38,947 nucleotides of DNA from Bacillota bacterium (GCA_049324975.1 JBMOPI010000238.1:1-38947), one strand, 5' to 3'. Shown: positions 618-33,196, counted from the stretch's first letter. Notes: generated by a model from the letters alone, not told the origin. Numbers and translations are program-made.

Positions 618-1954
618 TGGGCCAATGGGTTACAATTCATCCCATTCTCCGGGAAAACATCCCCTACTCCCTGGAGGTGGAAATTGACGGGGGCAGGGTA
701 ATCAATGCCAGGTGTGGAGCTGCCGCCTTCTGGGGGTTGGAAACGGCTTTGGCCGGGAAGCATCCTTTTGATGCGCTGCAGGTGGTCCAGCGGTTCAATG
801 CCAACGCCGGGGTATCCCATGCCATTGCGGCGGCAGCAGGTTTTGAAAGGCTGCTACAGGTAGCCCCTGCCGGCAACAGCCGGCTGCTGCGGAATATTTT
901 GCAGGGCCTCGAGTTTATCCACTCCCATATTACGCATTTTTATCAGGGGGTGCTGCCGGATTTCCTGGACATTGCCGGTGCTCCCGCGGCGGGGGAAAAC
1001 CTACCGCCGGCGGTTGGCAAAGACTTAAGGGAGCATTACTGGCAGTCCTTTGAAACACTGGCTGTTATACACCGGGCCATGGCCGTATTCGGCGGCAGGA
1101 TGCCCTGCCTGACGAGCATCGTCCCCGGCGGGGTGGCGGTGCGGCCGGATTACCAGAAGGTTTTTGAAATACAGTCACACAGAAAGGCCGTTTTGCGATT
1201 TATCCGGGATACATACATAAAAGATGTGGAAAACCTGTTTGTTATTTTCCGCGAATATACAGGGGTCGGGGCCGGATCCCGGCGGATGCTGGCTATGGGA
1301 GCTTTTCCGTTGAGGGACGGGAAGGATGGCCGGCAGATGTTTTTCCCGCCCGGGACATCCCCCGGTGCCAGTGCGCCGCCGGATATTAATAAGCTGTCCG
1401 AAGACACGGCTTATACCTGGTTTAAGGGCGTTTCCGGCAGTCCGGGGGCGCTGCCCGAACCGGAGTTGAAGGACCGGGCCTATTCGTGGCTGCCTGTGCT
1501 AAAATTTGAAGAACAGCGCTGGGAAACAGGGCCCCTGGCCAGAATGACCATGGCCGGGGAAGAGAGGACGGCCCGGTTGGGTGTTCAGGCATACTCAGCG
1601 GCGGGCCGGCACTTGGCCAGAGCCTACGAAAGCTTATGGCTGGCAGAAAAAATGGAAGAATGGATAGACGGGCTCAAGCCCGGAAAGCCTGCGCTAACCG
1701 GAGAATTTAAGGTGCCGGAGGAAGGGGAAGGCTGGGCGGTGGCGGAAAGTCCCGCCGGATCAGTAGTCCACCGTTTCCGCCTGCAGGCCGGAAGGATAGA
1801 ATTTTACCGGGTTTTTGGCGCCGCGGCCTGGAACCTTTCCCCGCGGGACAGCGGTGAGCGTATGGGCCCGCTGGAAGAAGCCCTCATCGGTACACCGGTG
1901 GCCAATCCGCAGGACCCTGCGGAGGTGCTGAGGGTATTCAGGGCGTTTACTTAA
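617..1954 (+). CDS. [NiFe]-hydrogenase large-subunit homolog lacking the Ni-Fe cysteine ligands (445 aa)
   Basis: The ORF is colinear by eye with group-1 large subunits (VTIHPILRE..LEVEIDGGRVINA..FWGLETALAGKHPFDA...). The RxCGxCxxxH box reads RFNANAGVSH (nt 791-820). The ORF ends ...PAEVLRVFRAFT-TAA, just where DPCxxCxxH should start. It is translationally coupled to the small-subunit gene. Confidence 0.8.
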   Translation: MGQWVTIHPILRENIPYSLEVEIDGGRVINARCGAAAFWGLETALAGKHPFDALQVVQRFNANAGVSHAIAAAAGFERLLQVAPAGNSRLLRNILQGLEFIHSHITHFYQGVLPDFLDIAGAPAAGENLPPAVGKDLREHYWQSFETLAVIHRAMAVFGGRMPCLTSIVPGGVAVRPDYQKVFEIQSHRKAVLRFIRDTYIKDVENLFVIFREYTGVGAGSRRMLAMGAFPLRDGKDGRQMFFPPGTSPGASAPPDINKLSEDTAYTWFKGVSGSPGALPEPELKDRAYSWLPVLKFEEQRWETGPLARMTMAGEERTARLGVQAYSAAGRHLARAYESLWLAEKMEEWIDGLKPGKPALTGEFKVPEEGEGWAVAESPAGSVVHRFRLQAGRIEFYRVFGAAAWNLSPRDSGERMGPLEEALIGTPVANPQDPAEVLRVFRAFT

Positions 1955-1966
1955 GGAGGGTGCCTG

Positions 1967-2611
1967 ATGGGTCAGGGGATACTTTACCATACCGCCACAG
2001 CGCGGATTCTGCATTGGATAAATACGCTTTCTGTAGTTATGCTGACACTGACCGGTTTTTATATCCACTGGCCGTTGAAGTTTTCCCTGTTTTCCGGGAT
2101 GGATTCGGCACGCAAGCTGCATTTCATTTTTATGTATGTCGTTGTTTACGGTATAGTGATACGTGTATACTATGCCTGGGTGTCCGGGGATTATAGGGAT
2201 ATTATGTTTCGCCCGGCCGATATCAGGGGTCTGCCTGCGCTGGCCAGGTACTACTTTTTTATGACAAAAAGCCTGCCTGATTTCGGCAAGTATAACCCGG
2301 GCCAAAAACTGACTTATACCGGCTGGACGCTGTTGATTATAGTGCAGGCTGTAACCGGCTTTATTCTCTATTGGCCTACACGGCTGGCCTGGTTGGCTGA
2401 GCCCCTGGGTGGCATGATGATGATGCGTCAGGTCCACTACCTGGTTACCTGGATTTTCGTTGCTACCGTGGGTTTACATGTCTACCTGGGTTTCCTTGGC
2501 GGGCCGGCGGTGCTTAAATCAATAATCACCGGTTATATGTCTGCAGGGGCACATATGCAGCCTGATTCCGGGGAGGCCGGTACCGACCGGCTGATGACTT
2601 TGAGGAGCTGA
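1967..2611 (+). CDS. Ni/Fe-hydrogenase b-type cytochrome subunit (HyaC/CybH family)
   Basis: The 214-aa protein has about four TM helices. The N-terminus YHTATARILHWINTLSVVMLTLTGFYIHWP is typical of the family, with conserved His residues in the helices. An AAGGAGGG RBS lies 6 nt upstream. The position after the small and large subunits fits. Confidence 0.8.
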   Translation: MGQGILYHTATARILHWINTLSVVMLTLTGFYIHWPLKFSLFSGMDSARKLHFIFMYVVVYGIVIRVYYAWVSGDYRDIMFRPADIRGLPALARYYFFMTKSLPDFGKYNPGQKLTYTGWTLLIIVQAVTGFILYWPTRLAWLAEPLGGMMMMRQVHYLVTWIFVATVGLHVYLGFLGGPAVLKSIITGYMSAGAHMQPDSGEAGTDRLMTLRS

Positions 2612-2616
2612 AATAA

Positions 2617-2958
2617 ATGCACGAGATGTCCCTTATGGCCAGTATTTTTGACATTATCGGCCGCAACCTGGAAGCATACCCGGGGGCCAGGGTGAAAAAA
2701 GTGAAGCTGGTGGTGGGCGCCATGACTAACGTGGTGCCCGATGCCATGCAGATGGCCTTTGAAGCTATGGTCAGGGGCACGCCGGCTGAAGGGGCCGAAT
2801 TGACCATTGAGGAAGTTCCGCTGACTGCCCGCTGTCACGAATGTAAGTGGCAGGGAGAGATCGAAGAGTACAGGTTTTTTTGCCCCGCCTGTTCGTCACC
2901 GCAGCTGGAGCTTCTGACCGGCCGGGAACTATACATTGAAAGTCTGGAGGTTGAGTAA
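2617..2958 (+). CDS. hypA: hydrogenase nickel-insertion protein HypA
   Basis: The 113-aa protein has the N-terminal MHE Ni-binding motif (MHEMSL) and the zinc site CHEC-x12-CPAC. A GAGGAG RBS is present. Confidence 0.9.
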   Translation: MHEMSLMASIFDIIGRNLEAYPGARVKKVKLVVGAMTNVVPDAMQMAFEAMVRGTPAEGAELTIEEVPLTARCHECKWQGEIEEYRFFCPACSSPQLELLTGRELYIESLEVE

Positions 2959-3617
2959 TGGAAATAAAAATTGGCGCAGGCATTCTGGATGTAAATCAGG
3001 CAACTGCGGAGAGCAACCGGCAGGTTTTTGACCGGCACGGCGCCGTGGCGGTCAATTTGATGGGCTCACCGGGAGCGGGTAAAACAACCCTGTTGGAAAA
3101 AACCATCGACACATTGAAAGACCGGCTAAAGATGGCGGTAATTGAAGGAGATATTTATACTTCCAAAGACGCTGTGCGCATTGAAAAACACGGCATCCCC
3201 GTCAGGCAGATCAACACCGGCGGGGCCTGTCACCTGGATGCCCGCATGGTGGAGAAGACTCTGCCCCACTTTGACCTGGCCGGCATCGATTTAATGGTTA
3301 TTGAAAACGTCGGGAACCTGGTTTGCCCGGTGGAATTCAACCTTGGCGAACATTATAAAATTGCGGTGCTCAGCATTACCGAGGGAGACGATAAGCCGCT
3401 GAAATACCCCCTGATCTTTAAAGAGTCGGCGGCGGTGGTATTGAACAAAGTTGACCTGCTCGACTTTACCGATGTGAATATGGATAACCTGCAAAAGGAT
3501 ATTTTAAGCATTAATCCGCAAATCAGGATTTTCCAGGTTTCCGCCCGAACCGGGGCCGGTATCGGTGAATGGGCCGGCTGGCTGGAGGAAATTGCGGGGC
3601 AGCCCGGAGGGGAGTAA
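2958..3617 (+). CDS. hypB: hydrogenase nickel-incorporation GTPase HypB
   Basis: The sequence shows the P-loop GSPGAGKTT, ENVGNLVCP, GGACHLDA (Cys/His metal site) and NKVDL (G4). A TAATG overlap with hypA is present. There is no N-terminal CxxCGC or His-rich tract. Confidence 0.9.
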   Translation: MEIKIGAGILDVNQATAESNRQVFDRHGAVAVNLMGSPGAGKTTLLEKTIDTLKDRLKMAVIEGDIYTSKDAVRIEKHGIPVRQINTGGACHLDARMVEKTLPHFDLAGIDLMVIENVGNLVCPVEFNLGEHYKIAVLSITEGDDKPLKYPLIFKESAAVVLNKVDLLDFTDVNMDNLQKDILSINPQIRIFQVSARTGAGIGEWAGWLEEIAGQPGGE

Positions 3618-8520: not shown

Positions 8521-8901
8521 ATGTTGTTTTTTGCCGTTATCACCATGTTTGGAGCCTTAATATTCTATTCCTACGCCGTTTTGAACGGGCGCAAAGAGGG
8601 TCTCCGCCTAAAGCACCTCTTTGCTTTTGGAACGGGACTGCTGCTTGACTACCTGGGCACCGCCCAGATGAATATTTTTGAGCAGACATACGGCAAAGCG
8701 CCGGACTGGCATAATTATTCCGGGGCCATTTCTTTTTGGGGTATGGCCTTCCACTTTTTCCTTGCCCTGCTGGCCACTGCATTTGGCCGGGCACGTCAGG
8801 CCAACCGGGTTTTCCACAAGGTTAGTGTGATTATTTACTCAATATGGCTATTTGCGTTTATCAGCGGTGCTATTGCCGGGATTGGTAAAATAACGGATTA
8901 A
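8521..8901 (+). CDS. hypothetical integral membrane protein (about 4 TM)
   Basis: The 126-aa product is hydrophobic, and a GGGAGG RBS is present. I do not confidently recognise a family. Confidence 0.5.
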   Translation: MLFFAVITMFGALIFYSYAVLNGRKEGLRLKHLFAFGTGLLLDYLGTAQMNIFEQTYGKAPDWHNYSGAISFWGMAFHFFLALLATAFGRARQANRVFHKVSVIIYSIWLFAFISGAIAGIGKITD

Positions 8902-9002
8902 AAAAATATAATACTGACTAGCGCGGGATTACGAGAAGGTCGTCATTAAGACGGCAGCGCGTAATGCGTGGGATCCTTCTTCCCGGGGTCTGTATTATAT
9001 TA

Positions 9003-10481: not shown

Positions 10482-11783
<1,302 letters not shown>

Positions 11784-13397: not shown

Positions 13398-13510
13398 TAC
13401 TCTCTTATCAAGAGCGGCGGAGGGACTGGCCCTGTGAAGCCCGGCAACCATCTCGTTATTTTGAGAAAGGTGCTAATTCCTGTAGGAGTAATCCTAACAG
13501 ATGAGAGGAT
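13398..13510 (+). promoter_or_regulatory. SAM-I (S-box) riboswitch aptamer
   Basis: The sequence CTCTTATCAAGAGCGGCGGAGGGACTGGCCCTGTGAAGCCCGGCAACC...GGTGCTAATTCC...AGATGAGAG matches the S-box core. The P1 stem is CTCTTATC/GATGAGAG. Confidence 0.93.
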
Positions 13511-13553: not shown

Positions 13554-13603
13554 AAATGAACTAGCCCGTTTCGACGGGCGGCGAGATGAAAGGAAGGACA
13601 AAA

Positions 13604-14737
13604 ATGGGAAAGAACACGGAGTTAGTAAGGATTGGTCTGGCCACAGACAGACGGACAGGAGCCCTCAGCACGCCCATTTACCAGTGTGCCACCTTTGCCC
13701 ACCCGGCCCTGGGTGAAAGCACGGGTTACGACTACTCCCGGACCTGCAACCCCACCCGGGAGGTACTGGAAGAGGGCATCGCCCGGCTGGAGGGAGGGTG
13801 CCGCGGCTTTGCTTTTTCGACAGGCATGGCGGCTATTACCACCCTGCTCCTGCTCTTTAAACAGAGTGATCACCTTGTGGTTACGGAGGACTTATACGGG
13901 GGAACTTACCGACTGCTGGACAAAATATTTACAAATTTCGGGTTATCTGTTTCATATGTTGATACCAGTGACCTGCGGCAGGTTCAAGATGCTATACAGG
14001 ACAATACAAAAGCCATTTTTATCGAAACACCGACCAACCCCCTGCTCAAGATTGCCGATATCGCCGCCATCGCAGATACAGCTAAACAAAAGGGGCTGCT
14101 GACCATTGTTGACAACACCTTTATGACCCCGGTATTACAGCGTCCCCTGGAACTGGGCGCCGACATCGTGGTGCACAGCGGCACCAAATACCTGGGCGGC
14201 CATAACGACCTGCTGGCCGGTCTTGTGGTGGCCAAAGACGCGGCCCTGGCCGAAAAAATCGGTTTTCTCCAGAACGGCGCCGGCGCAGTATTAGCCCCCT
14301 TTGATTCCTGGCTGCTTATCCGCGGTCTGAAAACCCTGGGCCTCCGGGTAGAGCGGCAGGAACAAAACGCCCGGCAGCTGGCCGAATGGCTTGATGAACA
14401 CCCCTCTGTAACCAAAGTGTATTATCCCGGCTTAAGTACACACCCGGGCCATTTTACTGCCCGGAAACAGGCTTCCGGTTACGGGGCAATGGTTTCTTTC
14501 TTAGTAAAGGAGCAACTGCTTGTAGAGCAGGTTTTAAAACGGGTGCAGGTATTTTCTTTTGCTGAGAGCCTGGGGGGCGTTGAGAGTCTGGTTACTTTTC
14601 CGGCTGTCCAGACCCATGCCGATATCCCGCCGGAAACCAGGGCCAGGCTGGGTATTGACGACTGCCTGCTGCGGATTTCCGTCGGGGTGGAGGATATTGA
14701 CGACCTTATCGCAGATTTGGTCCAGGCCCTATCATAA
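13604..14737 (+). CDS. metI: cystathionine gamma-synthase / O-acetylhomoserine thiolyase-type PLP enzyme (MetI-like)
   Basis: The Cys/Met PLP family is indicated by YSRTCNPT, DNTF.TP and HSGTKYLGGHND. It is the first gene after the S-box, as in the B. subtilis metI-metC operon. The ATG at 13604 lies 6 nt after AAGGAAGG. The symbol is assigned by analogy only. Confidence 0.75.
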   Translation: MGKNTELVRIGLATDRRTGALSTPIYQCATFAHPALGESTGYDYSRTCNPTREVLEEGIARLEGGCRGFAFSTGMAAITTLLLLFKQSDHLVVTEDLYGGTYRLLDKIFTNFGLSVSYVDTSDLRQVQDAIQDNTKAIFIETPTNPLLKIADIAAIADTAKQKGLLTIVDNTFMTPVLQRPLELGADIVVHSGTKYLGGHNDLLAGLVVAKDAALAEKIGFLQNGAGAVLAPFDSWLLIRGLKTLGLRVERQEQNARQLAEWLDEHPSVTKVYYPGLSTHPGHFTARKQASGYGAMVSFLVKEQLLVEQVLKRVQVFSFAESLGGVESLVTFPAVQTHADIPPETRARLGIDDCLLRISVGVEDIDDLIADLVQALS

Positions 14738-14758
14738 TATGAAAGTGAGGATACTCCC

Positions 14759-15895
14759 ATGAAATTTGGAACTAAGGTGCTGCACACCGGCAACGAAATA
14801 GATCCCGCCACCGGGGCGGTAAGCATCCCCATTTTCCAGGCTTCCACCTTCAAACAGCCTTCCGTCGAAAATTTCGGACCCTACGATTACGCCCGTTCCG
14901 GCAACCCCACCAGGGATGCCCTGGAAGGAATAATCGCTGAACTTGAGGGTGGGGTCAGCGGGTTTGCCTTCGCCTCCGGGATGGCGGCTATATCAAGTGT
15001 ATTCCTGCTGTTTTCACCCGGCGATCACCTGATAGTTTGCGAGGACGTTTACGGCGGGACTTATCGCGCGCTGACCAAACTGTTCAGCAGGCTGGGCATC
15101 CGGACAACTTTTGTGGACACTACCGACCCGGAAAAAGTCCGGACGGCCATCACCCCGGGAACTAAGGCCATTTACCTGGAGTCGCCGTCTAATCCCCTGC
15201 TGAAAATAACCGACTTGGATGCCATGGTAGCTATCGCCAAAGAAAAAGAACTCCTCACCATCATCGATAACACCTTTATGACGCCATATTTTCAAAAACC
15301 CCTTGACCTCGGCATTGACATCGTCATCCACAGCGCCACCAAATACATCGGGGGCCACAGCGATGTGCTTGCCGGTTTGGTGGTGGTAAAAGACCGCAGG
15401 CTGGCCGGGGAAATTAAGTTCATCCAGAACTCCATCGGGGCCGTTTTGGGTCCGCAGGATTGCTGGCTCCTGATGCGGGGCATCAAAACCCTGAAGGTGA
15501 GGATGGACCAGCACCAGGCCGGGGCGTTGGCCATCGCGCAGTGGCTCAGGGAACAGCCGGAAATCACCGAGGTTTTTTACCCCGGCCTGCCCGGCCACAC
15601 CGGCTACGAAATCAACAAAAAACAGGCCACCGGCTTTGGCGGTATTGTTTCTTTCAAAACGGAAACAGAAGAACTGGCCAGGCAGATCATGAACAATGTA
15701 AAGCTGCCGGCCCTGGCGGTAAGCCTTGGGGCGGTGGAAAGCATTATCTCCTTCCCGCCGAAGATGTCTCACGCCGCCATGCCGCCGGAAGTAAGGCATG
15801 CTCAGGGGATAACGGATAACCTGATCCGCTTCTCGGTTGGACTGGAAGAGCCGGCCGACCTTATCGAAGACCTGCGGCAGGCGATAAAAGGGTAA
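14759..15895 (+). CDS. metC: cystathionine beta-lyase-type PLP enzyme (MetC-like)
   Basis: This paralog of the preceding gene shows YARSGNPT and HSATKYIGGHSD. The N-terminus MKFGTKVLHTG..TGAVSIPIFQASTFKQ resembles the MetC type. The symbol is assigned by analogy only. Confidence 0.75.
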   Translation: MKFGTKVLHTGNEIDPATGAVSIPIFQASTFKQPSVENFGPYDYARSGNPTRDALEGIIAELEGGVSGFAFASGMAAISSVFLLFSPGDHLIVCEDVYGGTYRALTKLFSRLGIRTTFVDTTDPEKVRTAITPGTKAIYLESPSNPLLKITDLDAMVAIAKEKELLTIIDNTFMTPYFQKPLDLGIDIVIHSATKYIGGHSDVLAGLVVVKDRRLAGEIKFIQNSIGAVLGPQDCWLLMRGIKTLKVRMDQHQAGALAIAQWLREQPEITEVFYPGLPGHTGYEINKKQATGFGGIVSFKTETEELARQIMNNVKLPALAVSLGAVESIISFPPKMSHAAMPPEVRHAQGITDNLIRFSVGLEEPADLIEDLRQAIKG

Positions 15896-27492: not shown

Positions 27493-27798
27493 GTGCAAAC
27501 TACAGCTTATCTTAATTCAAACAATAGAGTAGTAGAGTTTGATATTGGTCTGAATACATATGTTCCGTGGGGAAATGGAGATCCATACCTATACGATGTA
27601 CAAAATGCTTTTACTCACGAATTTGGGCATGCTTTATATGCTGGCGACGTACTATTTCCTAATGACGTGAGTAGCAAATACCCTAATTCGTATACCGAGG
27701 TTACGATGTATGTATGGATGGATGTGGGAGAAACGAAAAAACGTACTCTTCATGCGGACGATTCAGACGGTTTAATAGAGGCCTATAGATTTTATTAA
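27493..27798 (+). CDS. zinc-metalloprotease-like ORF (HExxH; matrixin/snapalysin-like C-terminal half), probably 5'-truncated or frameshifted
   Basis: THEFGHALYAGD, a Met-turn-like TMYVWMD and LHADDSDGLIEAY (compare matrixin DDxxGIQxLY) are present. The frame is open back to 27352, but only a GTG at 27493 is available as a start. No signal peptide is present, and the region is AT-rich. Confidence 0.45.
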   Translation: MQTTAYLNSNNRVVEFDIGLNTYVPWGNGDPYLYDVQNAFTHEFGHALYAGDVLFPNDVSSKYPNSYTEVTMYVWMDVGETKKRTLHADDSDGLIEAYRFY

Positions 27799-27817
27799 AA
27801 AAGAGAGGTGATTACTT

Positions 27818-28438
27818 GTGAAAAAAACAATAATGATTTTTGCAATTTTGGCTGTTTTTTTAGCTGGGGTAAGTATCTTTGTATCCAACCATAAAGCTAT
27901 TAGTGATAATAATGTTACTAAAATAATTCAATCGGCAAGTTATCCCAAGTTTGACTTGCCTGATTTGGTTTCCTATTCTCAACTTATTGTTACTGGGGTT
28001 GTAGAAAAAATAGGTCAACCAATGTGGAATAATCGGGATAACAAAAAACCGGATACTATCACAGGAAGCGACACCATTTACAGAGACATCATCATAAAGG
28101 TTTCTAATGTGGAAAAAGGTTCAATAAAAGGTGATAAAGTAATTGTTAGATTATTTGGAGGAACGATCGATGGATTTATTATTGATAACACTTCACAACC
28201 TGAATTAACTGAAGGAATGGAAATTGTAGCATTTTTGATACCAGACTCAACTCCTTATAATAAAGAAAAAAGTGCTGACCACTATATTTTTAAAGGAGCT
28301 GCTCAAGGTGTTTATAAACTGCAGTCAGATCAAGCCGAAAATGTTCATGGAAAAATTAAATTATCAGATTTTAGGAGTATTGAAAAAGAATATTTGGCGA
28401 AGCCCAAAGTTAAACAGCCTGTAGTATCGCAAGAATAA
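27818..28438 (+). CDS. hypothetical exported/membrane-anchored protein (AT-rich islet)
   Basis: The start is GTG, 7 nt after GAGAGGTG. The N-terminal signal/anchor is KKTIMIFAILAVFLAGVSIFV. I do not recognise a family. Confidence 0.6.
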   Translation: MKKTIMIFAILAVFLAGVSIFVSNHKAISDNNVTKIIQSASYPKFDLPDLVSYSQLIVTGVVEKIGQPMWNNRDNKKPDTITGSDTIYRDIIIKVSNVEKGSIKGDKVIVRLFGGTIDGFIIDNTSQPELTEGMEIVAFLIPDSTPYNKEKSADHYIFKGAAQGVYKLQSDQAENVHGKIKLSDFRSIEKEYLAKPKVKQPVVSQE

Positions 28439-31333: not shown

Positions 31334-31362
31334 TTGCATAAAGTGCCGCTTTTGCATATAAT
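31334..31362 (+). promoter_or_regulatory. sigma-A-type promoter of tRNA-Gly (and probably scfA-scfB)
   Basis: The arrangement is TTGCAT, 17 nt, TATAAT. Confidence 0.55.
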
Positions 31363-31381: not shown

Positions 31382-31456
31382 GCGGAAGTAGTTCAGTGGT
31401 AGAATAACGGCTTCCCAAGCCGCAGGTCGCGGGTTCGAATCCCGTCTTCCGCTCCA
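31382..31456 (+). tRNA. tRNA-Gly (anticodon CCC), CCA encoded
   Basis: The acceptor stem is GCGGAAG/CTTCCGC, the anticodon loop is TTCCCAA, and the T-loop is TTCGAAT. Confidence 0.95.
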
Positions 31457-31505
31457 TTTTCATTTTCATCCATTGCTGAGAATCATATTTAGGGGAGGCG
31501 TTCCG

Positions 31506-31652
31506 ATGTCCAAGCATATTCAAACCTTAAACAAGAAGAGTCTGCAGGATACCATTAAAAAAGGCGGCTGTGGTGAGTGCCAGACTTCCTGCCAGTCAGC
31601 CTGCAAGACATCCTGCACCGTGGGCAACCAGGTTTGCGCTAGCAAACAGTAA
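31506..31652 (+). CDS. scfA: six-cysteine ranthipeptide precursor SCIFF (48 aa); not in the supplied ORF track
   Basis: The ATG lies 7 nt after GGAGG (31494-31498). The translation is MSKHIQTLNKKSLQDTIKKGGCGECQTSCQSACKTSCTVGNQVCASKQ. The GGCGECQTSCQSACKTSCTVGNQxC core is the SCIFF signature, and the cognate rSAM gene lies immediately downstream. Confidence 0.9.
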   Translation: MSKHIQTLNKKSLQDTIKKGGCGECQTSCQSACKTSCTVGNQVCASKQ

Positions 31653-31676
31653 AATTAAACATATTGATTTAAAGCC

Positions 31677-31704
31677 AACCCGATCCATCCGGATTGGGTT
31701 TTTT
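31677..31704 (+). terminator. intercistronic rho-independent terminator between scfA and scfB
   Basis: AACCCGATCC-ATCC-GGATTGGGTT (one G-U pair) is followed by TTTT. Confidence 0.75.
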
Positions 31705-31734
31705 AACTTACAAAAAAATTAGGGAGAGAGCAAG

Positions 31735-33087
31735 TTGATACATAAATTTACCATTGACGGGGTTAAAATCCTGCTGGATGTCAACAGCGGGGCGGTACAT
31801 GTCCTGGACGACCTGGCCTGGGAAATCGTTGACCAGTATCAAACCGTTCCGGAAGAGGAACTGGTCGCCAGGTTTGCGGGGCAGTATCAGGCCGGGGAAG
31901 TCCGGGAAGTGCTGGCTGAGCTGCGCCGGCTGGAAGCGGAGGGCCTGCTTTTGGCAGCGGATAACCAGGAAGAACACTATGTACTGCCGGAAGAACCGGT
32001 GGTCAAATCCCTCTGCCTCCATGCGGCCCACGACTGCAATCTCCGCTGCCGCTACTGCTTTGCCGGCAAGGGCAAATTTGGCGGCGCCGGGGGGCTGATG
32101 CCTGCAGCCACCGGCCGGGCGGCCATCGATTTCCTGATGCGGGCGTCGGGGGCCAGAAGGCATTGTGAAATCGATTTTTTCGGTGGCGAGCCGCTGCTTA
32201 ATTTGGATACAGTAAAAGAACTGCTCGCTTACGGGCGGGAACAGTCGGCCAAACATGGCAAAGAAATAAAATTTACCCTAACCACCAATGCCCTGCTGCT
32301 TGATGAAGACACCGCGGCATTCCTGGACCGGGAAGGTATCAGTGTGGTGCTCAGCCTGGACGGGCGGCCGGAGGTTCATGACCGGATGCGGCCTGCCCCC
32401 GGAGGGAAAGGCAGTTACCGTGAGGTGGCGGACCGCATCTGCAGTTTTACTGCCGGTCGCGGCCATGATAATTATTATGTGCGGGGGACATATACCCGCT
32501 TTAACCTTGATTTTGCCGCGGATGTTTTACATATGGCCGGCCTGGGTTTGCAGCACCTTTCTGTGGAGCCGGTGGTAGCCCTGCCCCGGGAGGAATGGGC
32601 TTTCCGGGAAGAGGACCTGCCGGCCATCGGCCGGGAGTATGAAAAACTGGCCCGGGAATATATCCTGCGGCACGAAGCCGGCGAGACTATTGACTTTTTT
32701 CATTTTAACCTGGACCTGGACCAGGGCCCCTGCCTGCCCAAGCGCCTTACCGGCTGCGGCGCCGGGCACGAATACCTGGCCGTGACGCCGGCCGGTGACC
32801 TGTACCCCTGCCACCAATTTGTCGGGCGGGGACAATACCGGATTGGCGATGTCTGGCGCGGCCTCAATAAACGGGATGTGATGAAGGAGTTTCAGCGGGC
32901 CCACATCTATAACAAGGAAAAATGCCGGTCCTGCTGGGCCAAATTCTACTGCAGCGGGGGCTGCCATGCCAACGCCGAGGCGGCTAACGGCACTATATAT
33001 GAGCCTTACGAGCTTGGCTGCGCAATAACCCGGAAGCGGTTGGAATGTGCAATTTACGTGCAGGTTAAAAAGGCTGCGCTAGCCTAA
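31735..33087 (+). CDS. scfB: SCIFF radical-SAM/SPASM maturase
   Basis: The start is TTG after AGGGAGAGAG. The N-terminus is MIHKFTIDGVKILLDVNSGAVHVLDD, and the rSAM motif is CNLRCRYC. The C-terminal SPASM cysteines are present (CGAGHEYLAVTPAGDLYPCHQF, CRSCWAKFYCSGGCHANA). Confidence 0.9.
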   Translation: MIHKFTIDGVKILLDVNSGAVHVLDDLAWEIVDQYQTVPEEELVARFAGQYQAGEVREVLAELRRLEAEGLLLAADNQEEHYVLPEEPVVKSLCLHAAHDCNLRCRYCFAGKGKFGGAGGLMPAATGRAAIDFLMRASGARRHCEIDFFGGEPLLNLDTVKELLAYGREQSAKHGKEIKFTLTTNALLLDEDTAAFLDREGISVVLSLDGRPEVHDRMRPAPGGKGSYREVADRICSFTAGRGHDNYYVRGTYTRFNLDFAADVLHMAGLGLQHLSVEPVVALPREEWAFREEDLPAIGREYEKLAREYILRHEAGETIDFFHFNLDLDQGPCLPKRLTGCGAGHEYLAVTPAGDLYPCHQFVGRGQYRIGDVWRGLNKRDVMKEFQRAHIYNKEKCRSCWAKFYCSGGCHANAEAANGTIYEPYELGCAITRKRLECAIYVQVKKAALA

Positions 33088-33120: not shown

Positions 33121-33145
33121 AAAGGCGCTTATTTCGAGCGCCTTT
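33121..33145 (+). terminator. putative terminator after scfB
   Basis: AAAGGCGC-TTATTTCGA-GCGCCTTT is present, but the T-run is weak. Confidence 0.45.
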
Positions 33146-33167: not shown

Positions 33168-33196
33168 TTTACGGAAAAACCTTCCTATGCTATAAT
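33168..33196 (+). promoter_or_regulatory. candidate extended -10 promoter of the M23 peptidase gene
   Basis: The arrangement is TTTACG, 17 nt (ending in TGC), TATAAT. Confidence 0.45.

Follow-up and report, generated by a model that had tools for sequence, protein, structure and literature searches.

A frame of only 48 codons, lying ahead of a radical-SAM gene in a 38,947-nucleotide stretch of Bacillota DNA (hereafter the window), raises the question of whether the two genes form a pair that makes a modified six-cysteine peptide of the SCIFF type and, if so, how the pair is expressed and what its product does. SCIFF peptides and their ScfB enzymes were defined bioinformatically in 2011. The locus is almost certainly a canonical SCIFF (ScfA/ScfB) ranthipeptide cassette, a reading that takes in the biosynthesis, expression and role proposed below. 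The analysis shows the identity of both genes, the cofactor ligands, the coding nature of the small frame and the recurrence of a hairpin across loci, whereas the linked residues, the transcript structure and the role are inferred. An earlier note on this DNA had described a SCIFF peptide accompanied by a thioether-forming radical-SAM/SPASM maturase, and this description was borne out, as both products score above the curated equivalog cut-offs. The system is already known, and the instance in the window shows no departure from the definition of the SCIFF family.

The precursor gene scfA and the maturase gene scfB

The precursor gene, scfA, occupies positions 31506-31652 on the plus strand, where direct reading of the sequence gives an ATG at 31506-31508, 48 codons and a TAA at 31650-31652. 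The product, MSKHIQTLNKKSLQDTIKKGGCGECQTSCQSACKTSCTVGNQVCASKQ, is 48 aa long, compared with approximately 45 residues in the family, and comprises a leader (residues 1-21, encoded by 31506-31568 on the plus strand) and a Cys-rich core (residues 22-48, encoded by 31569-31649 on the same strand). The six Cys residues, at positions 22, 25, 29, 33, 37 and 44, display the spacing of the SCIFF core, C-x2-C-x3-C-x3-C-x3-C-x6-C. ScfA scored 87.5 bits against TIGR03973 (cut-off 50; E = 4e-25) and 88.2 bits against PF13165, the Pfam SCIFF model (cut-off 27; E = 3e-25). A GGAGG Shine-Dalgarno sequence at 31494-31498 (plus strand) is located 7 nt ahead of the ATG, and the region around it, GGGAGGCG, is unchanged across four relatives. 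The earlier note was accurate in reporting a 48-codon ORF with a GGAGG ribosome-binding site, and also in placing the gene beneath the length cut-off of the ORF track; the mechanical ORF containing scfA runs from a TTG at 31473 and encodes 59 aa, and it would be absent from a default ORF list, as the tool's default cut-off is 60 aa. Within the window there is neither a second scfA copy nor a second maturase gene, and an exact-sequence look-up of the ScfA peptide returned no record; the identical ScfB sequence turned up on a single 1.9-kb Logan contig only.

Relatives of the cassette were collected by scanning a single genome for each species, which yielded at least 593 loci encoding relatives of the maturase, of which 80 (L001-L080) were kept for comparison. 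An scfA-like ORF was present upstream of the maturase gene, on the same strand, in 76 of these 80 loci; in two of the remaining four the flank is too short to judge. Across 77 loci a 23-residue stretch of the core displays a mean identity of ∼94%, compared with 66% for the leader and only ∼47-57% for the maturases. The window core, CGECQTSCQSACKTSCTVGNQVC, fits the consensus and retains the donor Cys as well as the two Thr residues that are candidate acceptors; it agrees with the 77-locus consensus at all well-conserved positions, the sole departure being a Val in place of the commonest residue, Ser, at a variable position.

The maturase gene, scfB (31735-33087, plus strand), opens at a TTG at 31735, 82 nt past scfA on the same strand, and encodes a 450-aa radical-SAM/SPASM protein. 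A Shine-Dalgarno-like GGGAGAG at 31722-31728 (plus strand), 6 nt ahead of the TTG, is also found in one close-relative contig (L085), while a related sequence, GGAGCGA, is found in another (L084). Residues 101-108 of ScfB read CNLRCRYC and the C-terminal third of the protein is rich in Cys, in agreement with the earlier account of a 450-aa radical-SAM gene, 82 nt downstream, with this motif and a Cys-rich SPASM end. ScfB scored 598.8 bits (E = 7e-180) against TIGR03974, the model entitled ‘thioether cross-link-forming SCIFF peptide maturase', which exceeds the cut-off of 425 by 174 bits, and it also scored above the gathering thresholds of the Pfam models Radical_SAM, Fer4_12 and SPASM. The closest named relatives, as judged by ScfB, are from Thermincola, Peptococcaceae, Desulfotomaculum and Pelotomaculum, with ∼57-62% identity.

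The best match to ScfB among solved structures is CteB (5WGG/5WHY), to which residues 1-445 align with an E value of 1e-157. The alignment runs unbroken through the N-terminal domain of CteB over residues 1-90 of ScfB, a putative RRE-like domain; the Pfam PqqD model gave 20.6 bits over residues 12-72, which is below its gathering score of 23.4. In CteB the radical-SAM cluster is ligated by C104/108/111, auxiliary cluster 1 by C344/362/413 and auxiliary cluster 2 by C400/403/409/432 (PMC10177961). All ten of these Fe-S ligand Cys residues are present in ScfB, the CteB number being the window number plus three: C101/C105/C108 (CX3CX2C) for the radical-SAM core cluster and, within a SPASM region spanning residues 333-438, C341/C359/C410 for auxiliary cluster 1 and C397/C400/C406/C429 for auxiliary cluster 2. 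The ten residues are invariant across a 14-sequence alignment.

In the proposed biosynthesis ScfA would be translated as a 48-aa precursor whose leader (KHIxTLN...L...KKGG, approximately residues 1-21) would bind to the putative RRE (PqqD-like) domain at the N-terminus of ScfB. The enzyme would cleave S-adenosylmethionine at its radical-SAM [4Fe-4S] cluster, and the 5'-deoxyadenosyl radical would take a hydrogen from the side chain of a core Thr, predicted by homology to be Thr38 or Thr35 of the KTSCT sequence. The resulting carbon radical would then form a bond with the sulfur of Cys33, the fourth Cys, which would be bound at the open iron site of auxiliary cluster 1, while the second electron would be carried off by auxiliary cluster 2. 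The expected product is a peptide lighter by 2 Da that contains at least one Cys-Thr thioether.

Orthologous enzymes provide the background to this scheme. Tte1186 and CteB each make a single Cys-Thr link (PMC8326336; PMC10177961), during which auxiliary cluster 1 is the binding site of the substrate Cys (PMC10177961). The acceptor is disputed, being Thr37 in vitro and Thr34 on co-expression in E. coli, in CteA numbering (PMC8326336). The SCIFF link was later found to be a C-gamma thioether, a finding that led to the present placement of SCIFFs among the ranthipeptides (PMC8326336, PMC10114670). The earlier assignment of the window pair to the ranthipeptide class, with a Cys-to-side-chain thioether, agrees with this literature on orthologues (PMC8326336, PMC10177961).

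The CteA/CteB pair from C. thermocellum (Hungateiclostridium), whose product is ‘thermocellin' (PDB 5WGG, 5WHY), resembles the window pair in the full-length homology of the enzymes and in their ten shared ligand Cys residues. The 21-residue leader of CteA co-crystallised with CteB (5WGG chain B) aligns to leader residues 3-22 of the window peptide, and the CteA core motif, CxxCxxxCxxxCKTSCT, is also present in ScfA. In contrast to CteA, the window precursor has one additional N-terminal residue and is encoded in a different gene neighbourhood. The C-terminal tail of ScfA is ASKQ, while most related loci display an E-x-K-type tail, such as ENK. Tte1186a/Tte1186 from Caldanaerobacter subterraneus, the first SCIFF to be reconstituted in vitro, is a member of the same family that forms a single Cys-Thr thioether with the substrate Cys on auxiliary cluster 1 (PMC10177961). 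The same cluster-ligand pattern is present in ScfB, and the sequence likeness to Tte1186 is drawn through the shared models and CteB.

Transcription of the cassette

A tRNA-Gly gene with the anticodon CCC (31382-31456, plus strand; ARAGORN, and Rfam RF00005 with 70.3 bits) ends 49 nt before the start codon of scfA. A gap of 46-49 nt between this tRNA gene and scfA is also found in three close-relative contigs (positions 1-73 in L083, 191-313 in L084 and 1-74 in L085), in which ScfB identity to the window is 80-84%. Upstream of the tRNA gene, a promoter-like TTGCAT-17 nt-TATAAT was read by eye at 31334-31362 (plus strand). The site agrees with the consensus at 9 of 12 positions, including the whole -10 hexamer, and was not listed by the promoter scan because it falls below the rule of at least four of six matches in each hexamer. 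L084 shows the same TTGCAT-17-TATAAT layout ahead of the tRNA gene, at 143-171. The 31334-31362 site is the probable promoter of a transcript containing tRNA-Gly and scfA. The promoter scan found no promoter-like site in the 49-nt gap itself, and a separate scfA promoter at this position was rejected, as the only -10-like hexamers visible by eye would start transcription inside the Shine-Dalgarno sequence.

Co-transcription with the tRNA gene is preferred instead; in the lineage of the window scfA and tRNA-Gly(CCC) probably form a co-transcript, which would begin at the tRNA promoter and from which the tRNA would then be cut out. Proximity to a tRNA gene was rejected as a general trait of SCIFF loci, since any tRNA gene within 1.5 kb upstream was found in only 3 of 76 loci; the adjacency of tRNA-Gly and scfA is lineage-specific. 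In the more distant locus L001 the same tRNA gene is 197 nt away and scfA has a separate TTGCCA-17-TATAAT promoter. A search of the locus at Rfam gathering thresholds returned three tRNAs only, with no other known RNA elements.

The 82-nt gap between scfA and scfB folds with an energy of -16.9 kcal/mol (z = -2.35) and contains an intrinsic-terminator-like hairpin (31677-31706, plus strand; terminator scan and fold) with a 10-bp stem, a 4-nt loop and a TTTTTT run. A hairpin with a T-run occupies the scfA-scfB gap in 59 of 75 loci (∼80%), compared with a mean of 6.6 in shuffled gaps, and under a stricter rule in 44 loci, compared with 0.1 in the shuffles. The recurrence is strand-specific, with counts on the opposite strand of only 19 (basic rule) and 3 (strict rule). 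The hairpin sequences are unrelated among distant loci. Four close relatives, by contrast, share the stem but differ in the loop, and one A-T pair of the stem is replaced by G-C through changes on both sides.

The promoter scan found no promoter-like site between the hairpin and scfB. A hairpin between the two genes, together with the lack of a promoter-like site ahead of the second, suggests attenuation, and the 31677-31706 hairpin is probably an attenuator. The precursor gene would be expressed in excess as a short transcript stopping at the hairpin, and scfB would be expressed through read-through. In lanthipeptide operons, for example nisA-nisB, the highly expressed precursor gene is separated by a terminator-like hairpin from the gene for the modification enzyme. 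The placement of the hairpin between scfA and scfB is the same and, by analogy, would yield an excess of precursor over read-through enzyme, although nisA-nisB belongs to another RiPP class. No description of an inter-gene hairpin was found in the SCIFF literature cited here.

In two of the close-relative contigs (L082 and L083), an IS605-family OrfB/TnpB gene is located at 397-1497, directly past the scfA terminator hairpin. The insertion contains the domains HTH_OrfB_IS605, OrfB_IS605 and Cas12f1-like_TNB, and scfA (74-214) and scfB (1728-3080) are 1.5 kb apart on the same strand; the ScfB encoded there displays 84% identity to that of the window. Beyond the scfB stop codon in the window, folding revealed a further hairpin, with a 10-bp stem and a weak T-tail (33121-33145, plus strand), which is possibly the end of the scfAB unit; the fold of the 83-nt stretch past scfB (-21.3 kcal/mol, z = -1.72) is by itself not significant.

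Cellular role and gene neighbourhood

SCIFF peptides are among the most widespread RiPPs with a poorly understood physiological role. The modified peptide is proposed to act as a conserved regulatory peptide. When the pair was disrupted in C. beijerinckii, the expression of sporulation genes fell and that of agr quorum-sensing genes rose (Chen et al. 2020, as relayed in PMC8102284), a study in which, by the same second-hand account, C. ljungdahlii was also examined, and a review gives the role of SCIFF as quorum sensing (PMC8326336). The view that the role of the pair is unknown, expressed in the earlier note, is therefore too strong, as a knock-out phenotype has been published, although the role is still poorly defined. 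A 2026 preprint reports at most one such cluster per clostridial species.

A role in quorum sensing, which derives from a single knock-out study covering two Clostridium species, is hard to reconcile with the ∼94% invariance of the core across orders, and with the lack of a dedicated exporter or leader peptidase. It is possible, although this must be viewed as tentative, that the biosynthesis is as described above but that the product is a cell-associated housekeeping factor, for example one linked to the membrane or Sec machinery or to redox or metal binding via free Cys residues, rather than a diffusible quorum signal. Pheromones usually diversify, while the SCIFF core is nearly identical in the 77 loci and its maturases are not. 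The single copy of scfA in the window is in keeping with a housekeeping factor, as is the absence of exporters and leader peptidases from the recurrent neighbours, as judged from the ORF clusters that were annotated. The same can be said of the position of the pair between yajC/TIGR04086 and secDF in most loci (see below), and of the window scfA being apparently driven from a tRNA promoter. The wide spread of SCIFF, in addition, has been taken in a review to argue against an antimicrobial role (PMC8326336). Conversely, the sole genetic data, as relayed in PMC8102284, indicate effects on quorum sensing and sporulation, and the yajC/secDF vicinity, which is absent in the window, may be mere conserved gene order. 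A more specific form of the idea, somewhat more doubtful again, is that in this uncultured lineage a tRNA promoter drives a tRNA-Gly(CCC) transcript of which scfA forms the 3' portion, with the widespread SCIFF terminator limiting read-through into scfB, and that SCIFF, given a core more conserved than its own enzyme, would be a constitutive housekeeping peptide coupled to growth rate, with a conserved cellular target, and not a species-specific pheromone induced by cell density. The reading retained here is that of a conserved regulatory peptide.

The usual context of the cassette in the comparison set is tgt - yajC - TIGR04086 membrane protein - scfA - scfB - secDF - recJ - apt. TIGR04086 immediately precedes the pair in 31 of 76 loci, and SecDF is encoded downstream of it in 42 of them. 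The window resembles the canonical clostridial locus in the order of scfA and then scfB, in the intergenic hairpin and in a gap within the range of ∼60-200 nt. It differs in that the cassette is located behind a tRNA gene instead of among tgt, yajC, TIGR04086, secDF and recJ, none of which gave a tblastn match anywhere in the 39-kb window. The gene order runs from purA through two unannotated ORFs and the genes for a PabB-like chorismate-binding enzyme and a class IV aminotransferase (pabC-like) to tRNA-Lys/Glu/Gly and scfAB, beyond which are encoded, in turn, a LysM/G5/M23 peptidase and TPR, Peptidase_MA_2 and BON-domain proteins. The only unusual features of this instance are its chromosomal position and its probable tRNA-linked transcription.

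The statement that no protease accompanies the cassette is literally incorrect, as the LysM/G5/M23 peptidase gene begins 288 nt downstream and the Peptidase_MA_2 gene 2.8 kb downstream; these peptidases are probably unrelated to SCIFF. It could be argued that the M23 peptidase, the TPR protein and the Peptidase_MA_2 protein are partners of SCIFF in leader removal or export, replacing the yajC/TIGR04086/secDF context, since the three genes follow scfB not only in the window but also in L001, L003, L004 and L082 to L085, and single members follow it in L014 and L041. This is improbable, however, as the trio is missing from the other ∼70 loci, and as the M23/LysM/G5 proteins score as peptidoglycan hydrolases. 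Furthermore, the 33121-33145 hairpin and a promoter-like site at 33168-33196 stand between scfB and the M23 gene, and the synteny continues to the BON and EPSP synthase genes downstream and, in L014, to purA-pabB-pabC upstream, which looks like a conserved chromosomal order of related lineages rather than a cassette. The trio was left out of the cassette because it is lineage-limited, is part of a longer synteny and lies behind a hairpin and a promoter-like site.

Competing identities, annotation and other features of the window

The identity of the enzyme could in principle be other than that of a SCIFF maturase, as ScfB achieves strong partial scores against the models of related radical-SAM/SPASM families. 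These comprise 494.9 bits for NF040492 (‘not_ScfB', the exception model for ScfB-related orphan maturases), 262.9 for TIGR04064, 259.2 for PapB (NF047865) and 255 for QhpD (TIGR03906), and SCIFF maturases were originally described as sactipeptide enzymes (PMC10114670). That ScfB is in fact such a ‘not_ScfB', PapB/freyrasin, QhpD, CcpM or C-alpha sactipeptide enzyme is nevertheless highly improbable. All four scores are below the curated cut-offs (855, 518.7, 340 and 453, respectively), in contrast with the wide margin over TIGR03974, and a bona fide SCIFF peptide is encoded immediately upstream; the linkage in the orthologous CteA/CteB system is, moreover, C-gamma and not C-alpha (PMC8326336). 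PapB, which makes freyrasin from PapA in Paenibacillus polymyxa, is homologous to ScfB as a radical-SAM/SPASM ranthipeptide maturase and likewise forms thioethers to a side-chain carbon (PMC8326336, PMC10177961). Its products, however, are six Cys-Asp C-beta links in CX3D repeats, whereas ScfA lacks CX3D repeats, its only Asp residue being part of the leader.

The pattern of substitutions in the precursor gene provides evidence of its translation. When the 26-codon core of the window was compared with 76 loci, differences per site came to 0.053 at the first codon position, 0.096 at the second and 0.513 at the third; substitutions at position 3 thus exceed those at positions 1 and 2 five- to ten-fold, a bias that points to a translated gene under strong purifying selection. 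That scfA is an unexpressed chance frame and that the enzyme has another substrate is barely credible: the frame has only 48 codons, and generic gene callers skipped or mis-framed it on three of five close-relative contigs, but this is set against the strength of the TIGR03973 match, the canonical Shine-Dalgarno sequence 7 nt from the ATG, the retention of the ORF in 76 of 80 loci, where the core is better conserved than the enzyme, and the excess of third-position changes. By this comparative evidence, scfA is a real gene.

The proposal that automated annotation misses scfA holds only in part. The SCIFF peptide is easily overlooked in structural annotation but readily recognised by TIGR03973 (PMC5300114). 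A search with the window peptide matched 5,780 protein clusters, many of which are titled ‘six-cysteine ranthipeptide SCIFF' (NCBI) or ‘predicted ribosomally synthesized six-cysteine peptide SCIFF' (JGI), showing that both resources name SCIFF routinely. Generic gene calls on the five close-relative contigs, by contrast, were correct for scfA in L083 and L084, missed the gene in L081 and L082 and mis-framed it in L085. In L082 the gene was not called even though the first 300 bases, including scfA, are identical to those of L083, while in L085 an out-of-frame ORF of 51 aa (146-301) was called in place of scfA (75-215). The equivalent of this shadow ORF in the window lies at 31570-31722. These data show that an scfA of 46-48 codons is still lost or placed in the wrong frame by generic gene callers.

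The identification made in the earlier note is correct, but the pair is ordinary, occurring in thousands of Clostridia-type genomes, and SCIFF already has curated HMMs, a crystal structure, an in-vitro reconstitution, a knock-out study and automatic naming by NCBI. The intergenic hairpin, the contrast between a near-invariant core and an enzyme of ∼50% identity, and the relocation from the yajC-secDF context offer modest leads on expression and on the question of a quorum signal.

Several other features of the window merit description. An ORF for the large subunit of a [NiFe]/[NiFeSe]-type hydrogenase (617-1954) ends in ...VLRVFRAFT followed by a TAA, at approximately model position 471 of 485, which we take to be just ahead of the expected C-terminal DPCxxCxxH nickel-binding motif; the ORF may be truncated or an unusual variant. 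It is followed by HypA and HypB genes at 2617-3617. A 124-aa ORF at 11784-12158 matches just the N-terminal ∼118 residues of the NifS/IscS cysteine desulfurases, which are ∼350-400 aa in length, and looks like a gene fragment directly behind the homocysteine synthase gene (10497-11783). Two ORFs (101 and 206 aa) at 27493-28438, between purA and the PabB-like gene, had no Pfam match, no NCBIfam match above cut-off and no homologue among the 80 comparison loci. A DUF3800-VII RNA motif (RF02967, 71 bits) at 8521-8999 is located immediately downstream of an ORF of the HsmA family (TIGR03987), and a SAM riboswitch (RF00162, 92.9 bits) at 13402-13507 precedes two tandem genes of the cystathionine gamma-synthase/beta-lyase family (13586-15895).
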